Shown here piece by piece: positions 7,879 through 11,574 of a DNA stretch of 64,000 nucleotides. The DNA comes from Escherichia phage VB-EcoM-WM. Both the position numbers and the translations under genes were made by a program. Below the pieces are notes generated by a model that did not search any database, was not told the origin of the DNA, and saw nothing but the letters and a program-made list of their open reading frames with translations. The stretch is taken from the sequence record PQ014731.1. One strand, 5' to 3'. The first letter of the stretch is position 1. Every line of letters begins with the position of its first letter.

Positions 7879-8379
7879 GTGAAAATTAAAATCTTTGCTA
7901 TTATTTTGAGCGCATTTTTATCGCTGCCTGTTGTTGCAGCACCAAAACAAAAAGTATATCACACCTGCAAGCCATCAGATACTAAGGAAAACATTCTAGC
8001 ATGCAATATCTACAGGGAAGCTAGAGGAGATGGCACGATGGGTATGCTGGCATCTGGGTTTGCCACCCTAAACAGGAAATCTCATCCCAAATACCCGGAC
8101 ACTATAAGAAAGATTGTCTACCAACCTAATCAGTTTTCGTGGACAACCTACGGCAAAACTTTTAAGGTGACAGAAAAAGATTCATGGGATCACGCTAAAA
8201 GTCTTGCAAAGATGCTTCTAAAGGTCTATAATAACAACCATGTTGCATACATGGCTATGGATATAACAGGTGGAGCAACACACTACCATACGACCAAAGT
8301 ACGACCGAAATGGGCAAAAAAGATGCAGAGGACAGCTCAATTCGGGAGTCATATCTACTACAAGGAGCGCAATAAATGA
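7879..8379 (+). CDS. SleB-like cell wall hydrolase with signal peptide
   Basis: NIYREARGDG and QPNQFSW motifs typical of Hydrolase_2/SleB; hydrophobic N-terminus KIKIFAIILSAFLSLPVVAAP; start adjusted to GTG 7879 after RBS GGAG. Confidence 0.65.
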   Translation: MKIKIFAIILSAFLSLPVVAAPKQKVYHTCKPSDTKENILACNIYREARGDGTMGMLASGFATLNRKSHPKYPDTIRKIVYQPNQFSWTTYGKTFKVTEKDSWDHAKSLAKMLLKVYNNNHVAYMAMDITGGATHYHTTKVRPKWAKKMQRTAQFGSHIYYKERNK

Positions 8380-10358
8380 TTGTAAACAGTAATGAAACTA
8401 AAGCAGTGCTAACTGGAAATATGGAGGTCACCAGGGGCTCAATTTCTCTGAACAAAGAGACTTTTGGGCTAATCATTAAAGGGATTTACGAAGATAAGGT
8501 GCTGGCAAGCTGCCGTGAACCAATCTTCAATGCTGTGGACTCTCATGTTGAGTCTGGACGGGGTGATGTACCGATCATCATTCACTCTCCTACAGACCTT
8601 GAACCATACTTCTTTGTGCAGGACGTTGGATTAGGCATGTCAGAAGAGATGGTCCGCAACACTTTCATGAACCTCGGAGAGTCAACCAAGCGCAACAGCA
8701 ACGCTCTGGTGGGTAATAAAGGTGTTGGTTCAAAGGCCCCGTTCAGCATGGTGGACACTTTCGATGTGATCAGTGTACACAATGGTGTTGAAAGCACATA
8801 TCTATTGTTCTTGGATCAGGGTATCCCAAACGTTACCAAAATCCGCGAGCGGAAGACCGAAGAGCACAATGGGGTAAAAGTTCAGTTCCATGTTAAGAAA
8901 GAGCATGTTCTGAAATATCGCACTGCTATTGCATCATGCCTACGCTATGCAAAGTTTCCGTTTACCGTTACCGATCCTATGACCAATAAGATGCTGGAAG
9001 GTGACAAGGTTGAGGCGCAGTATCGCTACGAGAAAGATGGTTGGAAAATGACCATCCTAAAGGGCTATACCAGCTCTGACGAGAGTCGCGTGGTAATGGG
9101 TCACCAACCTTACCGTTCTAAGTTCCTGGAGACATTAACAGACTACCCTGCAATCTGTGTAGAGATCCCTATCGGGGATTGCAATATTAACCCTGGGCGC
9201 GAATGGACCATAGAGGGGCACGACGATGGTGGATTCCAAGAGCGGTTGGAGGCTTTTGTCAAAGAGGGTATCCGTCTTCGTGGGGCAGAAGTTGTTGCGG
9301 AATTGGAGACAGCAAAAACATCCTCAGAAGCACGTGAGATGATGAAGAACAGTGGAGTGTTCGGGCACATCTTCGGTAAGAATTTTATGTGGGACCGATG
9401 GGAAGAGACAGGACTAGGAAGTTTGGGAGATTGTGAGATCTTCGCTGGCGGCTTAAATAAAGGCCGCATAGGTTACGCCTGCTACGGAAAGTCGGAGTTC
9501 TTACGAGGGGTCTACTTAGTGTTTAACGACGGAGACGGCAAATATAACCGAAATAAGTGTAACTACTTAAGCGAGATCACCGGACGCAACGTTTTCTATT
9601 GCCGTAACACGGATTTGGTGGAAGAGTTTAAAGAAGCGGCACACCACCCGTTCTTTGCAGATACGGTCAAATTGTTATCAGAGCTTCCTCGCCGACCTGT
9701 GAAGAAAGGTGAAACCAAAACTCGTTACGAGCCAGGCTATTGGGTTAAAAAACTTGAGAAGGATGGTTACTTCCGTCGTGAGCGTATTACTAAGGCAGAG
9801 TTCAGGAAGATTAAGCACTGCATTCCTTATGAGGGTGATATCCAACGTGGAAGTTGTTGGCTGGGACAGCTGAGTAACATCTACCAGCAAAATTATGACC
9901 GTGTGCGTGCGGCACTCCAGATTCCTGAAGGGGAAGATCTGTACCTAGTATCAGAATCTCGTCTGCTTTGGACTGATCCTGATTGCCAGTATGTTACAGA
10001 GAAGAATGTGGAACATTTGTTGAAAGAGGACGCCTGGAAATTCTTACTGACTCGCGCAGCAAATGAAACTTCATATGACAGCCTGTATAGACAATTAGGG
10101 AAAATTATTCCCATGCAAGATTTTGGAAATTATCGGCCACATTTCCACAAGTGGGAAGGTAACACCGCGTGGAAGCACAGTGAGCTAAATCATCGTGCCA
10201 AAATCTTAATCGCCAACCGAGTTAAATGCGGGAAGGCCTATATTGCAAGATTGGAAAAGAAATACCCACTTTTGAAGCATGTAGGCTTGAAATATTGGGA
10301 CACTCCTGCTATGATTGAATACCGTGAACTGATCGATACAAAGAATAACATCAAATAA
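8376..10358 (+). CDS. rIIA: rIIA-like protein with GHKL (Bergerat-fold) ATPase domain
   Basis: GHKL motifs REPIFNAVDSH, VQDVGLGMS, GNKGVGSKAPF; 660 aa; followed by candidate rIIB. Confidence 0.6.
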   Translation: MIVNSNETKAVLTGNMEVTRGSISLNKETFGLIIKGIYEDKVLASCREPIFNAVDSHVESGRGDVPIIIHSPTDLEPYFFVQDVGLGMSEEMVRNTFMNLGESTKRNSNALVGNKGVGSKAPFSMVDTFDVISVHNGVESTYLLFLDQGIPNVTKIRERKTEEHNGVKVQFHVKKEHVLKYRTAIASCLRYAKFPFTVTDPMTNKMLEGDKVEAQYRYEKDGWKMTILKGYTSSDESRVVMGHQPYRSKFLETLTDYPAICVEIPIGDCNINPGREWTIEGHDDGGFQERLEAFVKEGIRLRGAEVVAELETAKTSSEAREMMKNSGVFGHIFGKNFMWDRWEETGLGSLGDCEIFAGGLNKGRIGYACYGKSEFLRGVYLVFNDGDGKYNRNKCNYLSEITGRNVFYCRNTDLVEEFKEAAHHPFFADTVKLLSELPRRPVKKGETKTRYEPGYWVKKLEKDGYFRRERITKAEFRKIKHCIPYEGDIQRGSCWLGQLSNIYQQNYDRVRAALQIPEGEDLYLVSESRLLWTDPDCQYVTEKNVEHLLKEDAWKFLLTRAANETSYDSLYRQLGKIIPMQDFGNYRPHFHKWEGNTAWKHSELNHRAKILIANRVKCGKAYIARLEKKYPLLKHVGLKYWDTPAMIEYRELIDTKNNIK

Positions 10359-10368
10359 GGAGACCAAG

Positions 10369-11574
10369 ATGATTTTCATCTACGAACATTTCAAAACCCG
10401 TAAAGAGGCAAGAGACCGCCGTGCAGAACTTGAGAAGAAGGGTTTCATATGTGCCATTGAGAAAGGCGACACAACCTGGACACTGGCAGTTGGTGCCCCA
10501 GAGTTGTTCGATCCTGACCGTGACAGCGTCTGCTACACCCGTGAAGATTTTGAAACCCGCGAAGAGGCCCGTTTATTTCGATACGGTCTGGAAGATAACG
10601 GTAAGTACGCCATGATCTTAGATTTAGGCGAAGGGTCCGTTAAACGTTGGGGCGTGGTATACCCACTGTGTGTTGTTCATGGTGTGGGGTTCACTGGGGT
10701 AGCAATCAAGTCAGAAGAACCTTTAGTAGAAGTCAAAGATCCGGTGCTGGAGGTGGTGAGCAGTGTATCTCAGCAACAGACTCGAAGTATTGAGCCTTTG
10801 GTAGTTATTTGTGGGGAACTCCTCCAGATCACCTGCAACGAAGGCATTTTTGAAATTCGCCGCAGTGAAAGTGAGGAAGTTTACCAGAAAGTCTTCGACC
10901 ATATCTCTGTCCAGAAATATGACGAGGCAATTGGTGAAATCCTTGTCTGGTTGGAACGCAAGAATGAGTTCACTACACTTGCAGACAACCTGATCATGAA
11001 AGATGGTAAGCTCTACTACTACGGTGTAGAGATGCGATCCACCATTGCAAAGAAAATTGAGAAAGATTATGCAGACGGAACACTAGATGACCGCTATGTG
11101 AAATTCCTAGTTCGCCTGCTACGCAATCCTTCTGCAAAATCTGTAAACATGCTCTACGATTTTATGCAGGCCAACGATATCCAGGTTGCAGAAGATGGTC
11201 GAATCATTTGCTACAAAGGGGTTCAGTTTAACGGCAGCAAGTGGGTGGATTGGCACAGTGGTAAAGTTCCACAATACCAGGGTGCTTTTGTATCCATGCC
11301 TCGTAACTTTGTAGAGGATGATCCTGAAGCTGCTTGCTCCTATGGCTTACACTGCGCCAGCAAAGAGTATGCAAAGAGCTACGGCACTGTAATGACTGTT
11401 ATGGTTGATCCTGCAGATGTGGTCAGTGTGCCATACCAACACAATAGCGCTAAGTGCCGTGCATGCCGCTATGAGATTGTGGTAGCTCCGGAAGCACGCA
11501 AAGACGGAGACCCTATTGAATATGTAGTTGATCGTGACGGTAACACTATCGACATTCTTTACGAGGAGGCGTAA
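10369..11574 (+). CDS. hypothetical protein, possible rIIB-like partner (401 aa)
   Basis: Synteny only, immediately downstream of rIIA-like gene; no motif recognised. Confidence 0.4.
   Translation: MIFIYEHFKTRKEARDRRAELEKKGFICAIEKGDTTWTLAVGAPELFDPDRDSVCYTREDFETREEARLFRYGLEDNGKYAMILDLGEGSVKRWGVVYPLCVVHGVGFTGVAIKSEEPLVEVKDPVLEVVSSVSQQQTRSIEPLVVICGELLQITCNEGIFEIRRSESEEVYQKVFDHISVQKYDEAIGEILVWLERKNEFTTLADNLIMKDGKLYYYGVEMRSTIAKKIEKDYADGTLDDRYVKFLVRLLRNPSAKSVNMLYDFMQANDIQVAEDGRIICYKGVQFNGSKWVDWHSGKVPQYQGAFVSMPRNFVEDDPEAACSYGLHCASKEYAKSYGTVMTVMVDPADVVSVPYQHNSAKCRACRYEIVVAPEARKDGDPIEYVVDRDGNTIDILYEEA

Follow-up and report, generated by a model that had tools for sequence, protein, structure and literature searches.

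Phage T4 mutants in the rII genes grow on Escherichia coli B and fail on K-12(lambda), where the RexAB system of the prophage aborts the infection by membrane depolarization, and the T4 rII proteins are described as showing "membrane-associated" behavior. Knockdown of RIIA and RIIB by CRISPRi-ART in phages T4, MM02, EdH4, SUSP1, and N4 had no effect without Rex and lowered the efficiency of plating on lambda RexAB+ cells; the rII modules of these phages are divergent, sharing <40% identity (PMC11879866). The HIDEN-SEQ preprint likewise reports that transposon insertions in T4 rIIA and rIIB are depleted only in the presence of RexAB, and the RIIB protein of T6, which is toxic alone, triggers a CARD-gasdermin defense (PMC10312443). 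Here, we describe the corresponding pair of genes in a 64,000-nucleotide (nt) stretch of DNA (the window) from Escherichia phage VB-EcoM-WM (PQ014731.1). Two open reading frames (ORFs) on the plus strand, both with ATG starts and encoding 660 and 401 amino acids (aa), are assigned as rIIA and rIIB; together they would form a T4-type rII module directed against Rex-type abortive infection. The ORF list reproduces exactly the coordinates and lengths given for both genes in the original prediction, which had been made from the window's letters and its ORFs.

The 660-aa protein has phrog_612 ("RIIA") as its best PHROG family, with residues 1 to 658 aligned to profile positions 1 to 724 of 725 (E = 1.4e-124). 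We retrieved the T4 reference genes and scanned them in the same way, so that the family assignment was tested beyond labels: T4 rIIA (NP_049616) falls into phrog_612 (E = 9e-250) and T4 rIIB (NP_049889) into phrog_609 (E = 7e-111, profile positions 751 to 1049). Direct comparison by BLASTP gives 28% identity to T4 rIIA over residues 1 to 198, starting at residue 1 in both proteins (E = 3e-21), and alignment of the family profile with hhalign extends the match to residues 1 to 300 on T4 residues 1 to 304 (probability 99.95%, E = 1.4e-37). The original prediction had called this protein rIIA-like on the basis of three Bergerat-fold ATP-binding motifs. All three are present, namely, the N-box E48-x3-N52-x2-D55 (EPIFNAVD, nt 8517 to 8540), the G1 motif D83-x-G85-x-G87 (DVGLG, nt 8622 to 8636), and the G2 motif G113-x2-G116-x-G118 followed by S119-K120 (GNKGVGSK, nt 8712 to 8735). 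They are invariant across an alignment of 24 family sequences, as is S103-T104-K105, and they are colinear with those of T4 rIIA (E47/N51/D54, D81.G.G, and G117..G.G). The generic Pfam model HATPase_c_3 matches residues 50 to 147 (E = 1.8e-8, 34.9 bits against a cutoff of 25). With family membership, direct T4 homology, and motifs all in agreement, both the motif claim and the rIIA assignment stand, and the 660-aa protein is identified by homology as an rIIA orthologue.

The downstream gene had originally been called rIIB-like by position only, and its assignment now has homology behind it. Its best PHROG family is phrog_609 ("RIIB"), with residues 132 to 375 on profile positions 806 to 1045 (E = 3.7e-61), so that the profile search against the rIIA and rIIB families gave a clear match for each gene. 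BLASTP aligns residues 172 to 371 with T4 rIIB residues 107 to 304 at 37% identity (E = 2e-39), and hhalign places residues 151 to 373 on T4 residues 87 to 306 (probability 99.9%, E = 1.3e-33). The matches to both T4 proteins persist under reciprocal profile search. All rIIB homologues in the database carry the precomputed family PF26926, and nearly all of the 31 significant named neighbors in the viral structure library BFVD are RIIB proteins, from T4-like, N4-like, Felix-O1-like, PhiW-14, and other phages; a sequence search returned no solved structure for rIIB. The conserved core contains residues that are invariant even when T4 is included (N253-P-S-x-K257, C323-S-x-G-L-H328, V352-S-x-P355, K362, R364, and C366) and is modeled with a predicted local distance difference test score (pLDDT) of 80 to 95. 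We therefore assign the 401-aa protein as an rIIB orthologue, by homology as well as by position. E values of 1e-60 to 1e-124 against phage families, for two ORFs of such length in one dense same-strand operon, are far beyond chance.

Compared with T4, the locus shares its families and gene order and differs in its ends and its surroundings. The two pairs belong to the same two families, phrog_612 and phrog_609, with rIIA preceding rIIB; the spacer is 10 nt here and, counted over the junction of the T4 record, 11 nt in T4. Homology between the rIIA proteins covers the first 300 residues, including all ATP-binding motifs and a P-[G/S]-R-E motif, and homology between the rIIB proteins covers the core, 35 to 37% identical over residues 151 to 373 with the invariant Cys and His residues and NPSxK. 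The second conserved domain of rIIA ends in an invariant IPIGDC-x-[VI]-N-P-G-R275-E276, the PGRE of which lies at nt 9192 to 9203; the same region reads A-P-S-R-E in T4 and D-L-[DE]-V-[AG]-A-S-R-E-x-L-Q in divergent members. Beyond that point, T4 rIIA (725 aa versus 660 aa here) cannot be aligned by hhalign with the approximately 360-aa C terminus of the window protein. The PHROG profile spans residues 1 to 658, yet hhalign stops at residue 300. This C-terminal region is nonetheless confidently modeled (pLDDT mostly 85 to 93, in an AlphaFold2 model with a mean of 82.6) and is conserved among rV5-, phAPEC8-, and KP12-like phages, and the rIIA C-terminal domain has been described as "highly variable" (PMC7824862). 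At the other end of the module, T4 rIIB (312 aa) has a helix-turn-helix (HTH)-like N terminus, whereas the 401-aa protein here carries two repeats of the pattern F-x-[TS]-R-x-[ED]-A-R ... W-x-V, each modeled as beta-alpha-beta-beta, followed by a disordered linker at about residues 101 to 141. The neighboring genes also differ: topoisomerase and denB in T4, whereas the pair in the window follows a SleB-like hydrolase and precedes a Dda-like helicase.

A further comparison is offered by phage RB43, in which RIIA and RIIB form a single 1,049-aa chain (Q56C47), with both modules in one protein rather than in separate genes with translational coupling as here. The C-terminal part of this fusion is a structural neighbor of the window rIIB (E = 1.7e-16). 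The phrog_609 profile, at 1,055 positions, is matched by rIIA at its N terminus and by rIIB at its C terminus because natural RIIA-RIIB fusions such as that of RB43 exist. The fusion argues for joint action of the two proteins, in a physical or a functional complex.

The pair is not peculiar to this phage. A megablast search with positions 8000 to 12000 returned 120 phage records, 85 of which cover most of the query at 90 to 97% identity, almost all of them Escherichia rV5-like myoviruses (Vequintavirinae, genus Vequintavirus), and we assign the window on this sequence evidence to an rV5-like Escherichia myovirus of that genus. None of the records in the searched collection is at least 99% identical over the full region. 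In V5 and other Vequintavirus phages, the whole pair is present at 92 to 98% nt identity, with only allelic differences; named relatives include V5 (rV5, DQ832317/NC_011041), isim, Murica, EdH4, and BASEL phages Bas49 to Bas5x. Their shared flanks comprise a MoxR-like ATPase, a cell wall hydrolase, a helicase, methyltransferases, a primase-helicase, and a DNA polymerase. The type phage V5 has rIIA as its gene 1 (1..1983) and rIIB as its last gene (136732..137937, "rIIB protector," 97.9% nt identity to the window rIIB), and by precedent rV5-type genomes are opened at rIIA, according to the Murica genome announcement (PMC4591320). About 120 Vequintavirus records contain the pair at 92 to 97% nt identity, and many of them already annotate it as rIIA/rIIB or "membrane integrity protector." The identification made here is thus correct but ordinary, and the pair is already known, because the type phage and many relatives carry the annotation and functional tests exist for a phage of the same genus. 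As a side observation among the matches, 16 unannotated GenBank records of the MG0656xx series (for example, MG065655 and MG065662), labeled "Campylobacter phage" with Campylobacter jejuni as the host, are 95 to 97% identical to positions 8000 to 12000. Their host label looks inconsistent because about 100 E. coli phages carry the same sequence.

Among the classes of the GHKL superfamily, the rIIA ATPase belongs with Hsp90. A profile of 24 rIIA family sequences searched against the PDB gave only Hsp90 family proteins (TRAP1, HtpG, Grp94, and Hsp82) among its best 60 matches, with E values down to 2.9e-7, all confined to the N-terminal ATPase domain. The top 50 Foldseek matches of the rIIA AlphaFold2 model in the PDB were also all Hsp90 family members (E about 1e-15 to 1e-13, template modeling [TM] scores of 0.31 to 0.45), and a single-sequence search of solved structures returned Hsp90 N-domains only, at E = 0.09. 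Against E. coli HtpG, hhalign gave a probability of 96.1% (E = 3.3e-9, score 77.5). By profile and by fold, the Hsp90 family is the closest cellular GHKL class, and the two share the N-domain signature Y-x-x-K-x-x-x-x-R-E-x-x-x-N-x-x-D-A ... G-x-x-G-x-G as well as, possibly, a catalytic loop of the form D-[LV]-x-x-x-x-S/G-R-E-x-L. In a low-stringency colinear alignment anchored on the N-domain, the R275 motif falls on D-L-P-L-N-V-S-R336-E-I-L-Q of HtpG with posterior digits of 7 to 9, which makes R275 a candidate counterpart to the catalytic-loop arginine of Hsp90. Beyond residue ~198, tested alone, similarity to Hsp90 is not significant. The NCBIfam model "HSP90 family protein" scored 18.1 bits on rIIA against a cutoff of 455 bits, all Hsp90 family models fell far below their cutoffs, and neither a Pfam HSP90 match nor the Hsp90 C-terminal dimerization domain was identified. 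Because the curated model is far under its cutoff and the Pfam match is lacking, we do not file rIIA as an Hsp90 family member; the likeness may be one of working mode rather than of family membership. A literature search of incomplete coverage found no paper linking rIIA to Hsp90.

From these correspondences, a mechanism can be outlined. RIIA would bind ATP at E48/N52/D55, D83-G-x-G, and G113-x-x-G-x-G, and R275 in the invariant P-[G/S]-R-E motif of the second domain would complete the active site in the manner of the Hsp90 catalytic-loop arginine. RIIA would then probably work with RIIB as a clamp driven by ATP; the RIIB core with its invariant Cys and His residues could be the partner or effector, and the lineage-variable RIIB N-terminal module (HTH-like in T4 and beta-alpha-beta-beta here) would presumably set localization or target. 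The outcome would be a completed infection in cells with Rex-type abortive-infection systems, such as lambda RexAB, an infection-sensing membrane depolarizer. A bolder form of this proposal is that rIIA is a phage-encoded Hsp90-like machine, in which an Hsp90-class N-domain and a catalytic-loop arginine (R275; R278 in T4) drive an ATP-dependent clamp on or with rIIB and lineage-specific ends direct a shared engine to other cellular sites or other abortive-infection systems; we offer it tentatively and consider it less likely than its negation.

The overall best explanation is that the locus is a T4-type rII module, an orthologous pair serving as anti-Rex counterdefense, to which we give a probability of roughly 0.85; the ATPase clamp would be its mechanism. 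By analogy, the module of this phage is most likely a counterdefense that is conditionally required against Rex-type systems and dispensable without Rex. This reading is best supported because, in the knockdown and transposon data, rII is needed only in the presence of RexAB. EdH4, one of the phages in which knockdown was carried out, is classified as Vequintavirus murica, in the same genus as the window phage, and Murica, the species exemplar for EdH4, is 93.7% identical at the nt level to the window rIIA. For EdH4, the knockdown work in effect supplies the plaque test that the original prediction had put forward. Several points weigh against this explanation. The closeness of EdH4 to this phage rests on taxonomy (same genus), the Rex phenotype was reported collectively with representative plaque assays (PMC11879866), and the anti-Rex role of this phage's own pair is drawn from T4 and EdH4. 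The C-terminal 360 aa of rIIA could not be aligned by hhalign with T4, and the N-terminal 105 aa of rIIB are not homologous to those of T4, so specificity could differ, with other abortive-infection systems or other partners involved. Hydropathy indicates no transmembrane segment in rIIA or rIIB, and therefore a T4-like membrane association cannot be read from the sequence. On the mechanistic side, full-length Hsp90 matches the rIIA model with Foldseek TM scores of only 0.31 to 0.36, and the second domain aligned alone to the HtpG middle domain reaches an hhalign probability of 4%, which is not significant; R275 is treated as a candidate for this reason.

The alternative that survives best keeps the orthology to T4 rII and changes the target: the pair may be aimed at another abortive-infection or sensor system or have its primary role elsewhere (membrane or envelope integrity or DNA metabolism), with the anti-RexAB effect as a by-product. 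The lineage-specific ends of both proteins would fit such a shift, as would the wide distribution of the module in phages of hosts without lambda. In addition, very few wild-type phages are restricted by RexAB, the defense role of which has been questioned (BASEL, PMC8594841); the toxicity of T6 RIIB and its sensing by the CARD-gasdermin system (PMC10312443) point the same way, and the HIDEN-SEQ preprint highlights, for clinical isolates, fitness effects that include insertions in the RIIA/RIIB orthologues of Bas37. However, knockdown in EdH4 and in four other divergent phages had the same consequence, a defect with Rex and none in its absence, and no alternative target is known, and we consider this alternative unlikely, though more probable than the others.

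A second alternative, that rIIB acts on phage transcription, as a transcription factor or negative regulator, with rIIA as its ATPase partner, appears improbable. It draws on a survey of jumbo phages in which rIIB orthologues are counted among specific transcription factors (PMC7824862) and on T4 rIIB itself, residues 5 to 81 of which match phrog_867 ("DNA binding domain," E = 4e-5) and are HTH-like. The window rIIB has no such segment, two beta-alpha-beta-beta units standing in its place, and no DNA-binding family matches it. The T4-type HTH segment is not family defining, because rIIB N termini vary across the family, and conservation lies in the C-terminal core instead.

The two remaining alternatives, which concern the class of the ATPase, have a negligible probability. 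That the 660-aa protein is a MORC- or paraMORC-type GHKL ATPase of a non-rII conflict system with an unrelated downstream partner could be suggested by HATPase_c_3, which also covers MORC-type ATPases, and by subthreshold matches to the NCBIfam BbrUII/HgiDII restriction enzyme model (E = 1e-3, 17.8 bits against a cutoff of 550) and to PADLOC TmtA/REase_II (E = 0.005 to 0.02), but no PADLOC model is significant, the PADLOC and NCBIfam scans yield chance-level matches only, the full-length match to phrog_612 (E = 1e-124) is ~90 orders of magnitude better than that to any non-rIIA family, no MORC protein occurs among the best 60 PDB profile or top 50 Foldseek matches, hhalign gives 18% (E = 1.3e-3) for E. 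coli MutL, a GHL relative of MORC, against 96% for HtpG (a direct comparison with a MORC sequence was not made), and the gene that follows is clearly rIIB; we reject this identity. A topoisomerase-type subunit (GyrB/ParE/T4 gp39-like) belonging to the neighboring replication genes is rejected in the same way, since the Pfam and PHROGs scans contain no TOPRIM or topoisomerase family, GyrB of E. coli aligns weakly (31%, E = 5e-4) and over the shared Bergerat core only, and none appears among the best 60 profile or top 50 fold matches, even though the block holds a Dda/PIF1-like helicase, a primase-helicase, and a DNA polymerase, T4 rIIA adjoins topoisomerase genes 60/39, and phmmer gives a chance-level match to topoisomerase 3-beta (E = 0.19). 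The original prediction had named as its undoing best matches to MORC or topoisomerase-type proteins together with a downstream gene lacking rIIB homology, and neither half holds: the Hsp90 class is closest, and the rIIB homology is clear.

TABLE 1 Features of the rII locus in the window of Escherichia phage VB-EcoM-WM
Feature	Position (nt)	Strand	Description and basis
Shine-Dalgarno-like AAGGAG	8362..8367	+	8 nt 5' of the rIIA ATG; read directly from the sequence
rIIA orthologue	8376..10358	+	660 aa, 75.8 kDa, pI 8.2; ORF, phrog_612, and T4 homology
rIIA ATPase domain, residues 1-198	8376..8969	+	Predicted GHKL (Bergerat fold), Hsp90 class; motifs, Pfam, BLASTP, PDB profile, hhalign
rIIA second conserved domain, residues 199-300	8970..9275	+	Common to T4 rIIA; hhalign to T4 residues 1-304
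rIIA lineage-specific C-terminal region, residues 301-660	9276..10355	+	AlphaFold2 model, family alignment, hhalign
GGAG ribosome-binding site	10359..10362	+	Within the 10-nt rIIA-rIIB spacer; from the sequence
rIIB orthologue	10369..11574	+	401 aa, 45.8 kDa, pI 4.95; ORF, phrog_609, and BLASTP to T4
rIIB N-terminal module, residues 1-105	10369..10683	+	Two tandem units of ~45-55 aa
rIIB conserved core, residues 151-373	10819..11487	+	Common to T4 residues 87-306

The pair is embedded in a dense same-strand block of early and replication genes, and its boundaries overlap those of its neighbors (Table 1). The stop codon of the upstream SleB-like hydrolase (TGA, 8377 to 8379) overlaps the rIIA start as ATGA, and the stop codon of rIIB overlaps the start of the downstream Dda/PIF1-like helicase as TAATG. 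The mechanically called 206-aa ORF of the SleB-like cell wall hydrolase (7759 to 8379) crosses a strong terminator-like hairpin at 7842 to 7859 (TCCCCGC-TTCG-GCGGGGA, followed by a T-run). In the annotation of relatives, the gene starts at GTG 7879, and the resulting N terminus, VKIKIFAIILSAFLSLPVVAAP, resembles a signal peptide; the real hydrolase gene is therefore probably about 166 aa long and its product secreted. A transcription unit may begin just 5' of this gene and extend into rIIA. A scan for promoters and terminators gave counts of 26 against 22.7 ± 4.6 and 14 against 8.8 ± 3.0 in shuffled sequences, without clear excess, and therefore we make no claim about transcription units beyond the hairpin. 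Scans for tRNAs and Rfam families across the window returned no matches.

Other genes of the surrounding block were noted in passing. Positions 5985 to 7438 contain an 89-aa ORF and, after it, a MoxR/AAA-type ATPase of 396 aa (phrog_1297, E = 4e-110), with its start listed as TTG 6248 and annotated ~6 nt later in relatives; the label "ATPase/MoxR" is given in relatives to the 89-aa ORF as well. Downstream of the rII and helicase genes, the early block contains two DNA methyltransferase genes, one at 13344 to 14672 (N6_N4_Mtase, 442 aa, Pfam E = 9e-42) and one at 15906 to 16700 (a site-specific DNA methylase in the annotation of isim), both of which probably serve anti-restriction self-methylation. 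Two observations concern rIIB and its homologues. A SPOR domain (PF05036) was considered for the rIIB N terminus and rejected, as it is below the Pfam cutoff and occurs in only 2 of 20 homologues. One database homologue from outside the window, P0005 (498 aa), is 98% identical over 55% of the query and carries, besides PF26926, precomputed matches to many TPR repeat families; it lies on a 3.3-kb contig and may have arisen by chimeric assembly or by fusion during gene calling.

Elsewhere in the window, an ORF-poor stretch of ~2.3 kb at 41656 to 43955 contains only a 114-aa ORF with a GTG start (43217 to 43561) and coincides with a flip of the coding strand and of GC skew. Within it are an AT-rich segment (41800 to 42099, GC 0.31), short "ATAGTTGCC(C/T)TG" repeats clustered in both orientations at 42092 to 42370, and a perfect 18-nt inverted repeat (42141 to 42158 and 42275 to 42292); Rfam and tRNA scans of the stretch gave no matches. 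It probably corresponds to the ~2.6-kb "non-coding region" of rV5 and Murica (PMC4591320) and could serve as an origin or in regulation. The HIDEN-SEQ preprint mentions a "~2 ..." stretch of Bas54 that lacks transposon insertions and may correspond to this region.

For the annotation of this genome, little is gained, as the rII pair is a textbook module for which the type phage already provides the names and a sister phage the test. The additions made here are modest and partly inferential: an Hsp90-class ATP site, a candidate catalytic arginine, and a swapped rIIB N-terminal module. Their value is that of a comparative data point on the 70-year-old question of how the rII proteins act. Comparison of the rV5-type with the T4-type module delimits the conserved parts, the first 300 residues of rIIA and a 220-residue core of rIIB, from the parts that have been swapped between lineages, and this map supplies concrete residues for mutagenesis.

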